A stretch of 9,822 nucleotides of DNA. It comes from a virus. Lineage: Duplodnaviria; Heunggongvirae; Uroviricota; Caudoviricetes. Position numbers and translations under genes: made by a program. The notes under the pieces were generated by a model. The model was not told where the DNA came from and made no database searches. It saw only the letters and a list, made by a program, of their open reading frames with translations. How positions within the stretch are numbered: position 1 is the stretch's first letter; each line of letters opens with the position of its first letter. This document shows positions 1 through 8,085 of the stretch, in pieces. The stretch lies in IMG/VR virus record IMGVR_UViG_3300011952_000030; one strand, given 5' to 3'.

Positions 1-303
1 ACTGGGGTTACACCAGGTAAGTATAGGTGGAAAATCAATATTCGCCAGTTCAACAATAAGGAAAATCTCATTGCATCACAACTATAAAACCATGTGTTTA
101 ACTCACAAAAAACAAATCATTAAACTAATCTGTTATATTATAATAGCTGCGTGCAATAATAATATTATATACTCTTAATATTCACTTGAAATATCTTCAT
201 ATAAAAACAGATTGAATAAAATCTTTTGGGGCTGGTATGTTTACCAACATTAAATTGCATCTCAATGTTTTCTTCAGCGTGAACAGGATTTTTATACAAA
301 CTG

Positions 304-324
304 ACACTATGGGTATCATAGTGT
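304..324. terminator. Hairpin (8-bp stem ACACTATG/CATAGTGT, 5-nt loop) followed by TTTTT on the plus strand and a moderately T-rich tract on the minus strand; possible bidirectional terminator 66 nt downstream of the 390..1349 gene
   Basis: Perfect inverted repeat read directly in sequence at 304-311 and 317-324; T-run at 327-331. No upstream plus-strand gene is visible in the window. Confidence 0.4.
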
Positions 325-389
325 AGTTTTTACGATTGTAAATATCCTGCATACAGGAACTCATCACTTTCAGATGATATCGCATACAG

Positions 390-1349
390 TTAATTCACCA
401 TCAGTCTTAGAGCCAGTTCTTCCGGATAGGGATCGAAGTAATTCTGTGTAAGCAAGTAATCATTAGGATACTCACCCAGATAATGCTTCAGCAGAGTCAA
501 CGGCGCAAGAAGAGGCAATGTGCCAAAGCGATAGTTAAGTATAACCTCGGTCAACTCTTTACGCTGGCGTGTACTTAAGTAATTACTAAAATACCCCTGT
601 ATATGCATCAGCACATTCGTGTGATTTTTACGTGATGCAGGTTTTCTGAGAATCGCCATCAGCTTATCACGATACACCTCAAAGTATGATTCAAGGTCCG
701 CCCACTCGTGTATTGCAGCCACAAATGGTCCCATATCTTTATAGCCTGCCTGACTATGCGCCAACAACTGAAGCTTATAACGACTATGAAAAGCTAATAA
801 CTCTCTTCTTGATAATTTCTCCTTGTAAAGGTGATTGAGCTCATGCAAAGCAAAAACTCTTTCAACAAAATTCTCACGAAGCACTGGATCATGTAATCGC
901 CCATCCTCTTCAACCGGTAGCCAGGAAAACTTTTCCATCAAAGTGCTCGTAAATAGTCCCACTCCATCTTTACGACCTCGATTACCATTTTCATCATAGA
1001 CACGCACGCGCTCCATGCCACAGCTGGGAGATTTAGCACAAACCACAAACCCCGATACATCCTTTAATTTGTGCATATAAGAACGACTAAACTCTGTCAT
1101 TCTCTCTGTCACATCCTCATTCTGGTCGTGGCTGAAACACATCCGTATATTTCCTTGCTTCGAGCGCACAAGACGTAGAGCAGGACGCGGAACTGGCAGC
1201 CCTATAGCCATTTCCGGACATACTGGTCTGAATGTTACCCATTCCACTAATTTGTCCATTAAAAAGTCAGCTCTTTTGTGACCACCATCAAAACGAACAG
1301 CAGAACCGGCCAAACAACCGCTGATTCCAATCACAGGTTTTTTTATCAT
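390..1349 (-). CDS. DUF523 (TudS-like, Cys-rich N-terminal half) fused to DUF1722 (YbgA-like C-terminal half), 319 aa
   Basis: ORF with ATG at 1349..1347 preceded by GGGGGAGGA Shine-Dalgarno. Cys motifs (GISGCLAG, VCPEMA, CAKSPSCGME) fit DUF523; the C-terminal half resembles YbgA. Family assignment is from memory, not a search. Confidence 0.75.
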   Translation of the reverse strand: MIKKPVIGISGCLAGSAVRFDGGHKRADFLMDKLVEWVTFRPVCPEMAIGLPVPRPALRLVRSKQGNIRMCFSHDQNEDVTERMTEFSRSYMHKLKDVSGFVVCAKSPSCGMERVRVYDENGNRGRKDGVGLFTSTLMEKFSWLPVEEDGRLHDPVLRENFVERVFALHELNHLYKEKLSRRELLAFHSRYKLQLLAHSQAGYKDMGPFVAAIHEWADLESYFEVYRDKLMAILRKPASRKNHTNVLMHIQGYFSNYLSTRQRKELTEVILNYRFGTLPLLAPLTLLKHYLGEYPNDYLLTQNYFDPYPEELALRLMVN

Positions 1350-1541
1350 ATCCTCCCCCTTGACTAATTCATTAACACATAAACTGTGTAGTGCACGGAA
1401 TAAATTGCCTTTCTGACGTCATCACTGACAATTTTTCTGTTATGGACTATTCCTAATATAGTATGAAAGTTCTTTAAGTGATCGGTCGTAATCATCTATC
1501 TTTCATACTTACTCTCAACTATCAAAAGTACAGGATTGATT
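1350..1541. promoter_or_regulatory. Divergent intergenic region between the YbgA-like gene and blc, with a 10-bp inverted repeat AGTATGAAAG (1461-1470) / CTTTCATACT (1500-1509) and a TGACGTCA palindrome (1426-1433)
   Basis: Repeats read directly in sequence; promoter function is inferred from position between divergent starts. Confidence 0.3.
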
Positions 1542-2066
1542 ATGAAGTTATGGCCTGTGTTGACTGGCATTGCACTCTCTTTCACTCTTATAGCATGTAA
1601 GGCCCCGACACCACCTAAAGGTGTGCAGCCGATTACAAATTTTGACGCCAACCGCTACCTCGGAAAATGGTATGAAATAGCTCGCCTCGAGAACCGGTTC
1701 GAACGTGGTCTGGAACAGGTCAGCGCTACTTATGGAAAACGGAACGACGGAGGGATTCGTGTACTTAACCGTGGATACGATCCAACGAAAAATAAATGGA
1801 GCGAGAGCGAAGGTAAAGCATACTTTACTGGAGATACTAAAACTGCAGCGTTGAAGGTTTCGTTTTTTGGCCCCTTCTATGGTGGCTATAATGTAATCAA
1901 ACTGGATGATGAGTATAAGTATGCTCTTGTTAGTGGTTCGAACAGAGAATACCTATGGATTCTGGCAAGGACCCCAACTATTCCAGATAAAGTAAAAGCA
2001 GACTATGTGCGAACCGCTCAAAAGTTGGGATTCAATGTCAATGAATTATTATGGGTTAAACAATAA
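1542..2066 (+). CDS. blc: Blc-family outer-membrane lipocalin lipoprotein (174 aa from ATG 1542; ORF track starts at TTG 1536)
   Basis: Signal peptide with lipobox L-I-A-C, then lipocalin motifs (NFDANRYLGKWYEIARL, FERGLE, KVSFFGPFYGGYNVI, YLWILARTP) closely parallel to E. coli Blc as recalled. AGGA lies 6 nt before ATG 1542. Divergent enough from chromosomal Blc to be a paralog. Confidence 0.8.
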   Translation: MKLWPVLTGIALSFTLIACKAPTPPKGVQPITNFDANRYLGKWYEIARLENRFERGLEQVSATYGKRNDGGIRVLNRGYDPTKNKWSESEGKAYFTGDTKTAALKVSFFGPFYGGYNVIKLDDEYKYALVSGSNREYLWILARTPTIPDKVKADYVRTAQKLGFNVNELLWVKQ

Positions 2067-2094
2067 AATCCCTACCCGAAATGATACTTATTAG

Positions 2095-2121
2095 AAAAAA
2101 ACCAGCCTTTGGGGAGGCTGG
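2095..2121 (-). terminator. Intrinsic terminator on the minus strand: 7-bp GC-rich stem (2102-2108 / 2115-2121), 6-nt loop, then a 7-U tract (plus-strand A-run 2095-2101); candidate tR' downstream of Q
   Basis: Stem pairs checked base by base; the U-tract only exists on the minus strand. Lies about 100 nt downstream of the Q stop (2222). Confidence 0.55.
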
Positions 2122-2221
2122 CTAAATCAGGAAACAAGCTGTTATATGATAATAACTACGTTGCGATTCCAACATTTAAAATGTTAGACTAATGACAATC
2201 AGACAGCAACTTTTCCTTTAA

Positions 2222-2599
2222 TTATTTCGAACAATCAGCATCCATCTCCAATCGGAGATCCAATACCATCAGCATGCCCTCCACTACGCCCTCAGCTTTC
2301 TGGAGCATCCTGCCAACCCAACAATCAGATCGCCCATGCTTACGTGCAAGCGCCATAAAAGTCATGCCGCCGACATAATAGTCCACCAATAAACCATGTA
2401 AATCGCTGTTGTTTTTTCTCAGGCGAGCCATACATTCACAAATGATCATCGCGTCATCGTCACAACATTGCGGGCGAGATTTTACTTTTGAAGGAATTAA
2501 TCCCTTAAAACCAGCGGCAATGGACGACCAGGTCACATCTTCATGATTATTAGCCGCCCATGCCCCCCAACGCTCAAGAACCATCTGAATATCACGCAT
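2222..2599 (-). CDS. quuD: Phage antitermination protein Q (QuuD / phage-82-type), 125 aa from ATG 2599 (ORF track starts at TTG 2614)
   Basis: [34 protein letters not shown]... and the Cys-rich zinc-binding region ([18 protein letters not shown]) match E. coli DLP12 QuuD as I recall it. GGAG lies upstream of ATG 2599. Confidence 0.85.
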
Positions 2600-2616
2600 C
2601 AACTTACTCCACAAAA

Positions 2617-3603
2617 TTAGGCCAGCACACCAATTGCCAGCGCGCGATCGATAAATCGAAAAATCAGCTCCAGTTGGGAGCCATACTTCTCTTCAAATGC
2701 CACGGTATCCGTATGCAACTCGTCGTGATGCTTTCTGCACAAAGGCAACACAAAGAGATCATGTGCTTTGGTTCCCATTCCGCCCTGCCCGTGACCAATC
2801 AGATGATGCGGATCGTCGGCTGGCATCCCGCAGCAAGCACACGGCTGTGTCTTAACCCAGCGTGTGTATTTCTCCTTAACCCAACGGTGACGTTTAGGCA
2901 GCTTCATGAAAGATTCCGGAGACTCTGGATCAACGGTGATGCTTACCACCGTCTTTTCCTGTGATGGGTTTTGTTGCTGGTGGGCGTGAGGCAACGGTGC
3001 AAGATTTTTTGTGCGCTGTTTCAATATGCTGGTGGCGGTCTGCTCTCCCGGTACGATGTCGCTTTCGCGGTACACCGAGCAGATTTTTTCCGCTGGTAAT
3101 CCCAGCGAGCGACGTAATACCGCTTCCGGTAGCGCGTCCGCCAGCTGATTGCGGACCGCCCACCAGGATAATTCAGCCAGAGATAATTCACGCTCCTTCG
3201 TACCGCTTATTGCGTGACCGATGACGTCAATCATCCATGCTGCCAGGTTTTGATGAGCAAGTTGCTCGAGTGATTCGGATGTCTGGTCACGCAGTTGGTT
3301 GTCGCAGTGCCAGCACAACACCATTGCGCCGGTACCATATCGGTGAATAACGGTTTCNNNNNNNNNNNNNNNNNNNNNNNNNNNNNNNNNNNNNNNNNNN
3401 NNNNNNNNNNNNNNNNNNNNNNNNNNNNNNNNNNNNNNNNNNNNNNNNNNNNNNNNNNNNNNNNNNNGCAGATTACGCATGCTTTTCGGTTCCGGCTCCA
3501 CCAGTACCCGGGTATTGTGGAATACCGGCATGGATTCACGGCCCGGCTTAACGACCACCAGCCCGAGTTCCGGTACCAGAACAGGTCGAAGTAATACCCG
3601 CAC
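2617..3603 (-). CDS. Nin-region protein with C-terminal HNH-like zinc-finger motif (DUF968 / YdfU-like); reading frame passes through a 110-nt N-run so the product is incomplete
   Basis: C-terminus [18 protein letters not shown]...[10 protein letters not shown] has the CxxC...HH...CxxHH spacing typical of HNH/DUF968 proteins found just upstream of Q in Qin-type prophages. ATG 3603 sits 1 nt after the upstream gene stop. Residues within 3358-3467 are unknown. Confidence 0.55.
3358..3467. other. Run of 110 N (masked or unresolved sequence) inside the DUF968-like gene
   Basis: Directly visible. The flanking reading frame is conserved across it. Confidence 0.95.
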
Positions 3604-3604
3604 G

Positions 3605-3883
3605 TTACCTCCAGATGCGTTGCTGGAATGTACGGGACGGACGCGGTGGGCGTTCGGAGTAAGGCAATCTGACTGAGATTATCCAGTGACGGTAGTCGAG
3701 ACTAAGGGCTTTCTTAACCTCGTATCCGCGCCTGCGGTAACACTGAATTATCCATTCAGCCTGCTCTTCAGTGCATGGAGGGTGCTGGAACCATTCAGAC
3801 TTGAATGCGTGAGAATACCGCTCGTGCGTGCAGGCAAGAACGGGCGAATTATCAGAATTGTAATATTTTACGTTGCGTGCCAT
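3605..3883 (-). CDS. Hypothetical small phage protein, 92 aa, Cys-containing
   Basis: ATG 3883 preceded by GGAG; the stop abuts the start of the downstream gene. No family recognised. Confidence 0.5.
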   Translation of the reverse strand: MARNVKYYNSDNSPVLACTHERYSHAFKSEWFQHPPCTEEQAEWIIQCYRRRGYEVKKALSLDYRHWIISVRLPYSERPPRPSRTFQQRIWR

Positions 3884-3949
3884 CGGTTTTCTCCGGTGGC
3901 ACGGTGTTACTCAGCGGGAGTTCAGCCCCGCGCAAGATTGTAGATGAGT

Positions 3950-4201
3950 TTATTCTTCTGCAAAAGCTGAAAAGCCTGCTTTTATTCCGATCTCTTTCAG
4001 TGCCTGTAATGAAGTGACAAACTCACCTTCGCGCAAGATAAATCCGTCTGTCACTCGACCATCCACAAAATTAATTAACGCAGCCCCATTCTTTCGCAAA
4101 CACATAATGCGGTAATGACTAACAAGATTTCCATTTTCAACGCACACAGCATAGAGGCCATCTTCACAAAAAATTTTACGCAGTTCTTCGATGTTCATCA
4201 T
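3950..4201 (-). CDS. Hypothetical small phage protein, 83 aa (occupies the position of rem in Qin-type prophages)
   Basis: ATG-ATG start at 4201; family not recognised. The rem comparison is positional only. Confidence 0.5.
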   Translation of the reverse strand: MMNIEELRKIFCEDGLYAVCVENGNLVSHYRIMCLRKNGAALINFVDGRVTDGFILREGEFVTSLQALKEIGIKAGFSAFAEE

Positions 4202-4317
4202 CAGAATCCTTCCGGATAATTAGCTCTCCCCTTTAAGGGACCATCCCTCTTATCCCTGCGCGCTACTTAAGTATTTTTGATTCTATTCCGGCACCGTCCA
4301 GAACTTCAAACGCGTTG

Positions 4318-4347
4318 AAAATAAAAACAAAAACACGCCGAAGCGGG
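4318..4347 (-). terminator. Weak GC hairpin with UUCG-type tetraloop (4334-4347) followed on the minus strand by a U-rich tract (plus A-rich 4318-4333); candidate hokD transcript terminator
   Basis: Stem has 4 G-C pairs and one mismatch; the U-tract is good. Position is about 70 nt downstream of the hokD stop. Confidence 0.35.
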
Positions 4348-4417
4348 TTAAGTGCGGGTGCGTTGAGGATGCCTGTCACATCAGAGGTGGCGAGGGATTT
4401 CTCCCTCGCCGGGTCTC

Positions 4418-4573
4418 TTACTCCTCAGGTTCGTAAGCTGTGAAGACAGCGACCTCCGTCTGGCCGGTTCGGATTCGTACCTCGCAGAGGTCTTTCCTCG
4501 TTACCAGTGCCGTCACTATGACGGTTAAACAGATGACGATCAGGGCGATTAACATCGCCTTTTGCTGCTTCAT
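4418..4573 (-). CDS. hokD: Hok/Gef-family type I toxin (HokD/RelF-like), 51 aa from ATG 4573; the ORF track's longer 70-aa form is an in-frame upstream extension
   Basis: MKQQKAMLIALIVICLTVIVTALVTRKDLCEVRIRTGQTEVAVFTAYEPEE matches E. coli K-12 HokD as I recall it: single TM helix plus conserved Cys and C-terminal periplasmic tail. A perfect 9-bp stem-loop (4389-4410) lies just 3' of the stop. Confidence 0.85.
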   Translation of the reverse strand: MKQQKAMLIALIVICLTVIVTALVTRKDLCEVRIRTGQTEVAVFTAYEPEE

Positions 4574-4951
4574 AGCCTGCTTCTCCTTGCCTTTCGGCAC
4601 GTAAGAGGCTAACCTACATGTGTCTAGCATGAAATTGGCCTCAGATTAATGTTAAGCGTCTTGCAGGACGCGTAATGTTAACTGGGGCTTTTCTCTATCT
4701 GCCGTTGGTGTTCATGCCCGAGGCAGATAGCCTCAAGCACCCGCAGGCATTCTACTTAACTCCCGTTATCTCGCCAATATGAAATCAGTCAGAAAGGCGA
4801 TCCATAAGAATAACAGAACAATAAATTACCCGCACCACCGCAATAGTCAGCGAACATTTAAGAACCAACATGACAGCCTCCCACATTTAAAGTACGTATG
4901 TTCTAATAAATATAAATGGCATGATTCTGCGAAATACTTACATAAGCAATT

Positions 4952-5018: not shown

Positions 5019-6743
5019 TTAAAGCCTAAAAAACTTATCGTCCTCCCCAAGCTCAAGCACAACACTATTATTGATGAAGTCTTGATCAATATTCTCCAAC
5101 TTGTCTTTAAGAATAGCCAATATATATTGACCATTAATCCCCGAAGCTATCTCGAATAACTTATTTATTTGATTTACATGAATTGCCTCAATTCCATCAT
5201 GAGCTATAAAACGTGGTGTTCTGGCTTCTAAAGACTCCTGGACAGATAAATAGGCAAAATCTAAAGAGGCAACCTGGGCTTTCTTTTTTCCTTCTCCCTG
5301 ATTACCTGATGTGAGCAAAGTTCCTAAAGGTTCAATGGTAAAAACGAAAGAACCGGAGGAATCTTTATAGGAAAGAATATATTCATCCTGATATAATTTT
5401 TTAGTATATAAAGAAAAATAGGAATTGAATAGCGCAAGACGTTTGTTAAAATCGTCAAGTTTAGATTTTAATCTATCTGACACATCATTAAACTTTGCTT
5501 TCAGTATATTAAAGTTGTTCTCCATCTCTTGGATTTGAAGTAGTCCAGCTTCAAGCCCACCTTTTTCTTCAAATAATGAATTTAATTTTTTTTGCATTAT
5601 TTGCAGGTCTGCCAATGTCCCATGCGAAGACAAACTCTTTAAAAGCTCTGATTCTTGAGTCAATAAGTTATTTAGTTCATCTTTATATTTGGAAATTTCT
5701 TGCAGCACTGGCTGCATTTGTTTTCTAATAAACTCAGCTTTTTTTACAAGCATTTTATTATGAAACGAAAGTAGCTCAGTAAACTCTTTGTTTAAGTTAC
5801 CTAACCGATCAGTTGCTTCTAAGTACAACTTCTGTAGATCTAGTGTATTTATATTTTCATGACTTTTTTCCAGATCTAGTATAGCCTTATCGTTTAATTT
5901 TTGCTTAAACTCCAAAGATGATAGTGTGATAGAAACTTCACTAATTTTAATTTTTAACTCATTTAACTCAGCAAGCATATCATTATAAGAGTCTGCCACT
6001 TGAAAATTAGAAATTAACTCTTCTTGTGCTATAATATCTCTATTTATAATTGCAATAGCTTGTTCCAAAGCATTCTTTGAGCGATGGCGAGTAATTACTT
6101 CATAATCGGATTTCGCCAGTTTATAGGCTTTAGTCACTGACTGTTTTTCATCCAGAATCTGTGAGTTACCGAACCCAAACATAAACAGATTTAACGTTTC
6201 ATATTGTGTATTAGAACCCATTTTTATCGTTTTTAATGCGTTCGACATCTTGTCATGCGTATTTCGAATAACACGTCCCATAATCTCTCGTATGGTCGGT
6301 TTTATCGCGGAATCAAGATATAATGTTCTTTTTAAAGCCTCGTTGAAATCTTTAGCCTTCGTATAGGACTCTTCATTTATTGAGGCTATAACCTTCGTTT
6401 TATTAGTCTCAGATGTAATTTTACGCTTAATTTTTATTACTGGTGCAGTTTTATTATTCAAATCTTTTGTGAGAATTAAACAAAACTCAATCTCGTTCTC
6501 TATCAAATAATTTTTTATAACCGAATTTTCTTTCTTGAATTCAGGATCGGTATAAAAATTCAGTTGTTCTGCTCCAAAACAAAAATCTAAAGCTCTTAAT
6601 ACAGTAGTTTTTCCCACACCATTTCCAGTTTGCTCTTTGCTGGAGGTGTTTCGGTCAATAATCAAATTAACGCCAATGTGAAATTCGATATCACGAATCA
6701 CTCCAAGCCTGAAAGAACTGACTATTAGCCGTTTCAAAAACAT
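5019..6743 (-). CDS. P-loop ABC/SMC-like ATPase with long central coiled coil, 574 aa; last gene of the AT-rich operon
   Basis: N-terminal head typical of SMC/RecF/OLD-type ABC ATPases, with Walker A GNGVGKTT (aa 40-47, nt 6603-6626). Lys/Glu/Leu-rich heptad region at about aa 230-470. Degenerate signature-like TSGNQGEG (aa 479-485) and Walker-B-like FIAHD (aa 512-516, nt 5196-5210). ATG 6743 overlaps the upstream gene by 10 nt. Confidence 0.8.
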   Translation of the reverse strand: MFLKRLIVSSFRLGVIRDIEFHIGVNLIIDRNTSSKEQTGNGVGKTTVLRALDFCFGAEQLNFYTDPEFKKENSVIKNYLIENEIEFCLILTKDLNNKTAPVIKIKRKITSETNKTKVIASINEESYTKAKDFNEALKRTLYLDSAIKPTIREIMGRVIRNTHDKMSNALKTIKMGSNTQYETLNLFMFGFGNSQILDEKQSVTKAYKLAKSDYEVITRHRSKNALEQAIAIINRDIIAQEELISNFQVADSYNDMLAELNELKIKISEVSITLSSLEFKQKLNDKAILDLEKSHENINTLDLQKLYLEATDRLGNLNKEFTELLSFHNKMLVKKAEFIRKQMQPVLQEISKYKDELNNLLTQESELLKSLSSHGTLADLQIMQKKLNSLFEEKGGLEAGLLQIQEMENNFNILKAKFNDVSDRLKSKLDDFNKRLALFNSYFSLYTKKLYQDEYILSYKDSSGSFVFTIEPLGTLLTSGNQGEGKKKAQVASLDFAYLSVQESLEARTPRFIAHDGIEAIHVNQINKLFEIASGINGQYILAILKDKLENIDQDFINNSVVLELGEDDKFFRL

Positions 6744-6970
6744 AATATCAAATCTCCATTTTCGTTAGCATCAACCAGGCCTAATAAATATAGCCAATTT
6801 AAAGTGTAAATATATTGCGTGAATGAAGAGTTGTTATTTTTAGATTTGAATTCATTATACAAGTCTATAATATCAACATACGAATAAGCATTTGAACTCA
6901 TGCATTCTAATAACCGAGCTCCCAGGTAATACAAGGTTTGGCTTGGTTTTGTTACATCAGAGATAATCAT
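6734..6970 (-). CDS. Small 78-aa protein, third gene of the AT-rich operon; possible adaptor or winged-helix-like component
   Basis: ATG 6970 overlaps the upstream stop in an ATGA arrangement; its own stop overlaps the ATPase start. Codon usage matches the neighbours. No motif recognised. Confidence 0.6.
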   Translation of the reverse strand: MIISDVTKPSQTLYYLGARLLECMSSNAYSYVDIIDLYNEFKSKNNNSSFTQYIYTLNWLYLLGLVDANENGDLILCF

Positions 6971-7563
6971 ATTGGTTTTTCCAGAATCTTACACTCTACG
7001 AATGCATGATAAACGATAAAAGAAGCATGGCATTCGATTTCTTCGCTTGTGTAATTCATTGCCATAAGAGAATTTAAGCATTTCTTAATGATGTGCTCTA
7101 TTACACTGTCTATTATCCAATCTGCAAACTCTCTTACCAATTGAATCTTTAAATTATTCCGTTCCTGAGCATCCTTGCAGCTCTTATACGCTTCTCTATG
7201 TTTAAGCAATAAATCTCCTTGACAATCAAGATATCGTGAATTGATGCTTTTCAGTGCCGTTTCCTTAGCAGTAGGCATACTTTCATTTAATGTTTCATAC
7301 GCTTTATCTATCATCGAAGAATATAGATAGAACCCTTCAATACGTTCTCTATGTTTTATAACATCATTGAAGTCTATTTTATTCTCAATATCATATGGCT
7401 CGTAGTCATTGTTTGTACGAGGATCAATAACATTCGAATCAACTAAAATACCAACAAGATCCATAAAAATCGATGGAGACTTTATAATATCAACAGAGTT
7501 AGAATCGACAACCACCTGCACATTACGTGAGTAATTCCCTGACCTTTGAGTAACACCAACCAT
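6967..7563 (-). CDS. 198-aa soluble protein of unknown function, second gene of the AT-rich operon
   Basis: ATG 7563 lies 2 nt after the upstream TGA; its stop overlaps the next ATG. Acidic, with five Cys but no recognisable nuclease or protease motif. Confidence 0.65.
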   Translation of the reverse strand: MVGVTQRSGNYSRNVQVVVDSNSVDIIKSPSIFMDLVGILVDSNVIDPRTNNDYEPYDIENKIDFNDVIKHRERIEGFYLYSSMIDKAYETLNESMPTAKETALKSINSRYLDCQGDLLLKHREAYKSCKDAQERNNLKIQLVREFADWIIDSVIEHIIKKCLNSLMAMNYTSEEIECHASFIVYHAFVECKILEKPI

Positions 7564-8028: not shown

Positions 8029-8085
8029 NNNNNNNNNNNNNNNNNNNNNNNNNNNNNNNNNNNNNNNNNNNNNNNNNNNNNNNNN
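8029..8085. other. Run of 57 N (masked or unresolved sequence) upstream of the AT-rich operon
   Basis: Directly visible. Flanked by ...TAGTGCAT and TGCATAGG... Confidence 0.95.

Follow-up and report, generated by a model that had tools for sequence, protein, structure and literature searches.

The stretch of DNA analysed here (9,822 nt; IMG/VR record IMGVR_UViG_3300011952_000030; hereafter the window) belongs to a lambdoid E. coli prophage, of which it covers the early-right (nin) region in the sense opposite to transcription. The minus-strand genes succeed one another in the order O-like replication gene, DUF977, a three-gene system of the ABC-three-component (ABC-3C) type, hokD, rem, DUF968/ydfU and Q. 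Q is followed by a terminator hairpin, a convergent lipocalin gene (blc) and a gene of the YbgA family (ybgA).

Several features of the nin region were recorded alongside. A complete type I toxin-antitoxin locus of the hok/sok type occupies 4418-4742(-) and is composed of a hokD-like ORF (4418-4630(-); PF01848) and a sok antitoxin RNA (4568-4742(-); Rfam, 115 bits against a gathering score of 59). The ABC-3C genes (5019-7563(-)) encode a DUF2326 ATPase-like protein of 574 aa, a 'middle component 6' and an ABC-3C protein, and have the look of a cargo island of the defence type. The related phages HannyBb and mEp460_ev081 show matches on either side of these genes and cover only 37-39% of the window. 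Masked runs of N are present at 3358-3467 and 8029-8085, the first of them inside the DUF968/ydfU gene. The ORF spanning 3358-3467 measures 987 nt versus 1050 nt for the ydfU CDS of the near-identical E. coli genome NZ_AP021933 (locus L001), so that coordinates to its right are offset relative to L001.

The Q antiterminator gene was delimited at 2222..2599(-) by Pfam search, alignment with QuuD and the RefSeq CDS. In the ORF list its reading frame extends over 2222-2614(-), with an upstream in-frame TTG at 2614. Biological support favours the ATG at 2599 as the start: it is the RefSeq start in L001, aligns with Met1 of QuuD and is predicted to give an intact product of 125 aa. Q matched the PF06530 (Phage_antitermQ) profile over its entire length (1-118/118; E 1.4e-50, 170.6 bits against a cut-off of 26). 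It shares 85% identity with DLP12 QuuD across 120 aa, and 79% identity over residues 1-120 with Q of VT2-Sakai (Stx2 phage; Sp5). The nearest solved structures are those of Q21 (6P18 and 6JNX; E 5.4e-10, residues 8-90), a protein to which the identity is only ~32-35%. On these sequence comparisons the window Q is of the QuuD type, as stated in the original prediction, and belongs to the Q21 family of antiterminators (QuuD/Q933W clade). The comparison with phage 82 proposed there proved ill-chosen, because PF06530 is the Q21 family whereas the Q of phage 82 falls under PF06323 (Yin et al. 2022, PMC9388147).

The putative recognition helices of the three Q types compared differ from one another (CWVGRM, GYIGKR and TCIGKR), and that of Lambda_2E9 Q is nearly identical to the helix of the window Q. 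On the Q strand the highest-scoring promoter-like match, TTTACA-16-TATTAT (10/12; 2375-2402(-)), falls within the Q coding sequence and is probably a fortuitous match in coding DNA. A CII-type paQ site was sought inside Q and none was found.

Downstream of Q, an intrinsic terminator was identified at 2095..2123(-) by terminator scan, RNA folding and homology to tR' of Sp5/Sp15. On the minus strand its 9-bp stem pairs 2123-2115 with 2108-2100 around a 6-nt loop (2114-2109) and leads into a U7 run (2101-2095). The hairpin begins 98 nt past the Q stop codon, and ~127 nt separate that stop from the end of the U run; the strong minus-strand terminator announced within about 100 nt of Q is present. 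Hairpin and U7 together were the top-ranked match of the terminator scan of the window, and the minus-strand hairpin folded at -14.9 kcal/mol (z = -3.1 versus shuffles). Since terminator-like sites are not rare in the window (13 found versus 7.8 ± 3.1 expected), the scan by itself is weak evidence. The Rfam match in the Q-blc interval was sub-threshold and driven by the terminator (28.6 bits against a gathering score of 50).

The same terminator could be related to one that has been mapped experimentally. In Stx phages, the PR' transcription start site (TSS) and the tR' 3′ end were located by dRNA-seq and Term-seq, 258 nt apart (PMC7547250). When the published coordinates were reconciled on the Sakai sequence, the Sp5 TSS fell on the A that follows TATCAT-GATAAG, 22 nt downstream of the Q stop, and the tR' 3′ end of Stx phages in the T run after GCCAGCCTCCCCCAGTGGCTGG. 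Local alignment of the window block 2144-2095, from the motif TAACAGC to the U run, with Stx1/Stx2 phage tR' gave a score of 43 (shuffles 18 ± 2.2), and this block is nearly invariant across >80 related loci. A pattern search for the hairpin in viral contigs returned only modules of the blc type and Stx-type phages, besides two unrelated chance matches. Together, alignment and pattern search support the view that the terminator is a tR' homologue.

Directly beyond the terminator lies blc (1542..2066(+)), the convergent blc-like gene of the original prediction. Its product, a lipocalin lipoprotein, matched PF08212 (E 2.7e-43) and NCBIfam Blc (312 bits against a cut-off of 267). From the blc stop codon it is 28 nt to where the U run ends and only 33 nt to the hairpin, a proximity which favours the view that the hairpin is chiefly a terminator or 3′-end stabiliser of blc, or a bidirectional terminator of two convergent units, and not a dedicated tR'. 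On the plus strand, too, the hairpin folds (-13.3 kcal/mol, z = -2.5), and an A-run precedes it there as in bidirectional terminators. However, the T/U run exists on the Q strand only, the blc strand reading CTAAATCAGG after the hairpin. Moreover, the hairpin and the 30 nt upstream of it recur in Stx phages devoid of blc, in which the hairpin is the mapped tR', and DLP12 displays the same layout, with a tR'-like hairpin abutting the nmpC stop. Its presence in phages that lack blc assigns the hairpin to the Q module, not to the moron. We therefore regard a hairpin devoted chiefly to blc as unlikely, a partial second role for blc 3′ ends being possible.

blc is known as a moron, carried by >50% of 19 lambda-like infant-gut coliphages (Mathieu et al. 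2020, PMC6969025), and here it is convergent with both Q and late transcription. The adjacent cargo gene, ybgA (390..1349(-); PF04463, PF08349), encodes a fusion of TudS/2-thiouracil desulfurase and DUF1722. It has the orientation of Q and of the late genes, and accompanies Q and blc in phages and viral contigs. Being co-oriented with the late operon, ybgA may be expressed late; a 9/12 promoter-like site was also found upstream of it at 1518-1491 (consensus scan). A terminator-like hairpin detected by terminator scan after ybgA (304..324(-)) would be a further barrier to late transcription. Just past the left edge of the window, a gene for an AraC/YdeO/GadX-like regulator (L001 19270-19983), whose start codon is 18 nt outside, constitutes the third cargo gene, and it too is followed by a minus-strand terminator-like hairpin (L001 19200-19179). 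These extra minus-strand terminators between Q and the holin gene essD fit the need for processive antitermination that is expected of embedded morons. Window positions 1-400, upstream of the AraC-like gene, have a GC content of 31% and show the lowest conservation within the module (73% identity to Lambda_2E9). The GC content of the cargo differs modestly from that of the nin region (38-45% versus 46-54%).

From the arrangement of Q, terminator and blc, the original prediction had concluded that late genes are missing and that the prophage is truncated just after its late-control switch. Such a remnant would have been cut off after Q and tR', with blc and ybgA as flanking or captured host genes in place of the late region. 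No lysis or structural gene was indeed found after Q or elsewhere within the window itself (ORF list, Pfam), and both blc and ybgA share their names with chromosomal genes of E. coli. However, the lack of a late gene inside the window says nothing on the DNA past its left edge. The whole window is present in seven complete E. coli genomes at 99.1-99.7% identity. In all six that match it at 99.5-99.7%, late genes follow ybgA in the same orientation, the very observation which the original prediction had named as refuting the conclusion of truncation. The stretch from ybgA to lysozyme is 100% identical in these six genomes, in the order ybgA, AraC-like gene, holin essD, ydfR and lysozyme, and it is covered to at least 80% in 325 genomes.

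Wider flanks were read in one of the six genomes, NZ_AP021933, which differs from window positions 1-3357 by 3 SNPs, all in Q and including one K40R change. To the left, the Q strand encodes the AraC/YdeO-like regulator, the essD holin, ydfR, the rrrQ lysozyme and an Rz-type lysis gene, and farther left the small and large terminase, the portal, a ClpP-capsid fusion and tail genes through J. In this genome the cargo adds ~2.9 kb between Q and essD. The right flank contains cro/cI-like genes, dicB, an exonuclease, xis and int, adjoining rspB. Lysis, morphogenesis, xis and int genes are thus all found in this sibling genome, with int and xis at the far end of the prophage, which is not the gene content of a truncated or cryptic remnant. 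From genomes 99.5-99.7% identical to the window, we infer that late genes also lie to the left of the window.

The module also recurs in phage genomes and in other prophages. In the isolated phages IdasGreatGrand, Lambda_2E9 and 1H12, a 732-nt ORF and then holin, endolysin and Rz come after Q, the terminator, blc and ybgA. The 166-nt intergenic DNA between Q and blc was found only in 12 phage records, all carrying blc (these three and nine others). Among IMG/VR loci with this Q allele, downstream DNA was collinear with the reference module to the contig end in 80/80, apart from IS insertions and a few loci diverging farther along. The Q-tR'-blc junction was detected in 1017 of 5426 complete E. 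coli genomes (~19%). Separately, a contig binned in a 'Candidatus Nanosynbacter' MAG (L211; JARKOR010000135.1, 2113 nt) shares 98.2% identity with window 1055-2531 (ybgA-blc-tR'-Q) and almost certainly reflects contamination of the MAG bin by an E. coli prophage. With late genes after ybgA in every complete genome matching the whole window at ≥99.5%, and with the module placed ahead of holin, endolysin and Rz inside phage genomes, a remnant cut off after Q and tR' is extremely improbable. We conclude that the interval is very probably the late-control module (Q and tR') of a lambdoid E. coli prophage which retains its lysis and morphogenesis genes.

The original prediction had envisaged a PR'/qut/tR' module after Q. 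Its tR' was borne out by the homology described above, whereas PR' and qut could not be located: a PR' promoter, a qut/QBE or a sigma-dependent pause element was sought in 2124-2221, and none could be assigned. Neither the Q21-type direct repeat ATTGAGCA/AATGAGCA nor a TAAGCT-type pause element at +2 was recognisable in the window interval. By consensus scan, the window contains 29 promoter-like matches versus 23.3 ± 4.6 in shuffles, that is, no enrichment.

At least four candidate PR' promoters can be read, which are mutually exclusive, none being preferable statistically and none having homology support. Two of these putative promoters, proposed from the scan and from reading by eye, fall in the stretch 2181..2250(-). 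The first, TGGAGA-18-AATAAT (2250-2221), overlaps the Q stop and is the only site of the interval that passed the scan (9/12), and the second, TTGCTG-17-TAACAT (2209-2181; 7/12), was read by eye. Also read by eye were TGn-TGGAAT (2174-2166), an extended -10 which is TAGAAT in Lambda_2E9, and TTGGAA-15-TATCAT (2172-2146). The latter would yield a 45-nt RNA, similar to the PR' RNA of phage 21 (~46-50 nt), and has the spacing ATCG-N12-TATCAT in common with the mapped PR' of Sp5. Its spacer is 15 nt, and no pause element was recognisable downstream of it.

Conservation pointed to a narrower region. Identity to the Lambda_2E9 variant reached 97.2% over 2095-2166, the best-conserved 72 nt of the module, versus 87% over 2167-2221, 82% over 2067-2094, 93.7% in Q and 95% in blc (2095-2166 versus 2167-2210, Fisher p = 0.006). 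Variation among 80 viral loci was too low for footprinting of cis elements. The part of this block preceding the terminator (2124..2166(-)), a conserved leader/promoter core by comparison with Lambda_2E9, contains two overlapping -10-like hexamers, TATTAT (2154-2149) and TATCAT (2151-2146), as well as the motif TAACAGC (2144-2138). Since the block is the best conserved relative to Lambda_2E9, essential cis elements are probably located within 2166-2095, near the TATTAT/TATCAT cluster, which may correspond to the PR' -10 or to a pause element. Upstream of TAACAGC, local and global alignments of 2145-2235 with Stx or DLP12 regulatory DNA remained within shuffle distributions. This dissimilarity fits the divergence of the putative recognition helices among the three Q types.

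Two further observations concern the same DNA. An inverted repeat, GTTAT-N6-ATAAC (2156-2141, minus strand), is centred on the -10-like TATCAT within the most conserved block, and might bind a protein or contribute to a leader RNA hairpin (2170-2130). Compensatory changes in this predicted hairpin were looked for by hand, and the idea was dropped: the two Lambda_2E9 differences, at the hairpin base, break pairs. In viral contig L038, an IS-like insertion of ~1.3 kb (~3430-4750) is located exactly between GTTGGAAT and the conserved block (~window 2166), and parts Q from the terminator block.

That neither a promoter nor a Q-binding repeat with statistical support was found from Q to the terminator, and that ~2.9 kb of cargo separate Q from essD, would be expected if PR' and qut were outside 2095-2221. 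The terminator would then end early-right (Q) transcription, and the late promoter would be elsewhere, for instance just upstream of the holin gene. We consider this very unlikely, because PR' abuts Q in both experimentally characterised relatives: the -35 of phage 21 starts 7 nt past the Q stop, and the Sp5 TSS is 22 nt past it. In addition, the terminator block is homologous to the terminator of a PR' transcript, and no part of the module is better conserved than the 72-nt block which ends in this terminator.

On the model of phage 21 and Stx phages, we propose the following late switch for a PR' next to Q. A constitutive late promoter PR' beside Q would produce a short RNA ending at 2095-2099, at the hairpin-U7 terminator (2123-2095). 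Q made after induction would load onto RNA polymerase at PR' and render it terminator-resistant. The late transcript would thereby pass tR' and proceed antisense through blc, then in sense through ybgA and the AraC-like gene. It would next enter the holin-endolysin-Rz genes and the head and tail genes just past the left edge of the window. In this scheme the family of Q, the terminator with its tR' homology, the late genes of near-identical genomes and phage isolates and the recurrence of the module were observed; the positions of PR', QBE and the pause element and read-through by Q are presumed, and the prophage may be inducible.

Conservation of the 72-nt block also suggested other roles for this DNA. 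The short RNA might be a trans-acting sRNA of non-Stx lambdoid prophages, analogous to StxS and aimed at another target. A second idea is that transcription of blc, whose own strand lacks a U-run terminator, might read into Q and act as an antisense brake on the late switch, much as paQ does in lambda. These ideas draw on conservation and on nothing beyond it, and we regard a role of either kind as decidedly improbable. As the terminator end is homologous to StxS, the leader was also evaluated as an StxS-like activator of rpoS, and rejected. Its pairing with the rpoS activating site reached -8.1 kcal/mol, which 487/500 shuffles equalled or bettered. Of the positive controls at this site, StxS gave -24.5 kcal/mol (1/500 shuffles as good) and DsrA -31.8 kcal/mol (0/500). 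Pairing with rpoS over long duplexes was uninformative even for these positive controls.

Taken together, Q, a terminator and a convergent host-like gene are no evidence of prophage decay, and the present analysis serves mainly as a correction. Between tR' and the holin gene, lambdoid phages have their standard cargo slot, in which cargo can be on the opposite strand. Its contents vary: blc, ybgA and the AraC-like gene here, nmpC in DLP12/Turner, tRNAs together with stx in Stx phages, and nothing but tRNAs in phage 21. The three genes named first are cargo (morons) in this classic slot, and appear to be, as phage morons are, genes of a dispensable type between conserved phage functions, variable among relatives. 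The arrangement is ordinary and of a known kind, and blc cargo has already been published. Inducibility would be misjudged if such prophages were described as truncated on the strength of a short window. The abundance of the Q-tR'-blc-ybgA module also makes it a convenient test case for the specificity of Q proteins of the QuuD clade.

The module can finally be compared with three known systems. Phage 21 has a Q of the same family (PF06530) and a similarly compact layout, in which Q is followed by promoter and terminator within ~90-130 nt; its Q stop is 91 nt from the end of tR', and the terminator ends near +50. Its cassette comprises PR'21, QBEu/QBEd, SDPE and tR', with the ATTGAGCA/AATGAGCA direct repeat and a TAAGCT pause element at +2. 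Unlike the window, phage 21 has two tRNAs and no convergent cargo before S21.

DLP12, PA-2, 434B and Turner carry a convergent porin gene (nmpC/lc) as the first cargo after Q, with the lysis genes (essD-rrrD-rzpD) farther on. As with blc in the window, the stop of this cargo gene abuts a hairpin-T terminator on the Q strand. The suggested comparison with DLP12 was thus apt for Q (the QuuD identity given above) and for the layout, whereas the intergenic DNA has no significant similarity besides the 9-mer ATATAACAG. DLP12 differs further in its terminator sequence, in a spacing of ~190 nt and in its cargo, which is a porin and not a lipocalin. Between quuD and nmpC (L007 ~2375-2400), DLP12 has a second hairpin, GGGGCG-TTGAGA-CGCCCC, whose T run lies on the strand of nmpC. 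This hairpin seems to be a terminator dedicated to the convergent nmpC, and has no counterpart in the blc module. A DLP12 element read by eye, TAATAT-GCC-AT-rich-T, resembles the published PR' pause region of phage 82; we took this for a chance resemblance, which serves as a warning on motifs read by eye in AT-rich DNA.

With Stx phages 933W/Sp5/Sp15, the module shares a Q that is 79% identical and the placement of cargo between tR' and the holin gene, in their case tRNAs and stxAB. The Stx hairpin (GCCAGCCTCCCC..GGCTGG-Tn) and ~30 nt upstream of it are homologous to the window terminator. In Stx phages, however, the 258 nt between PR' and tR' include an extra hairpin-T7 at ~+28 to +50, whereas in the window the U run ends ~127 nt beyond the Q stop. 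The DNA upstream is unrelated, the Q C-terminus and the putative recognition helix differ, and the window leader is without the rpoS seed of StxS. Where Stx phages carry tRNAs and stxAB, the window prophage has blc, ybgA and the AraC-like gene, of which blc is convergent.
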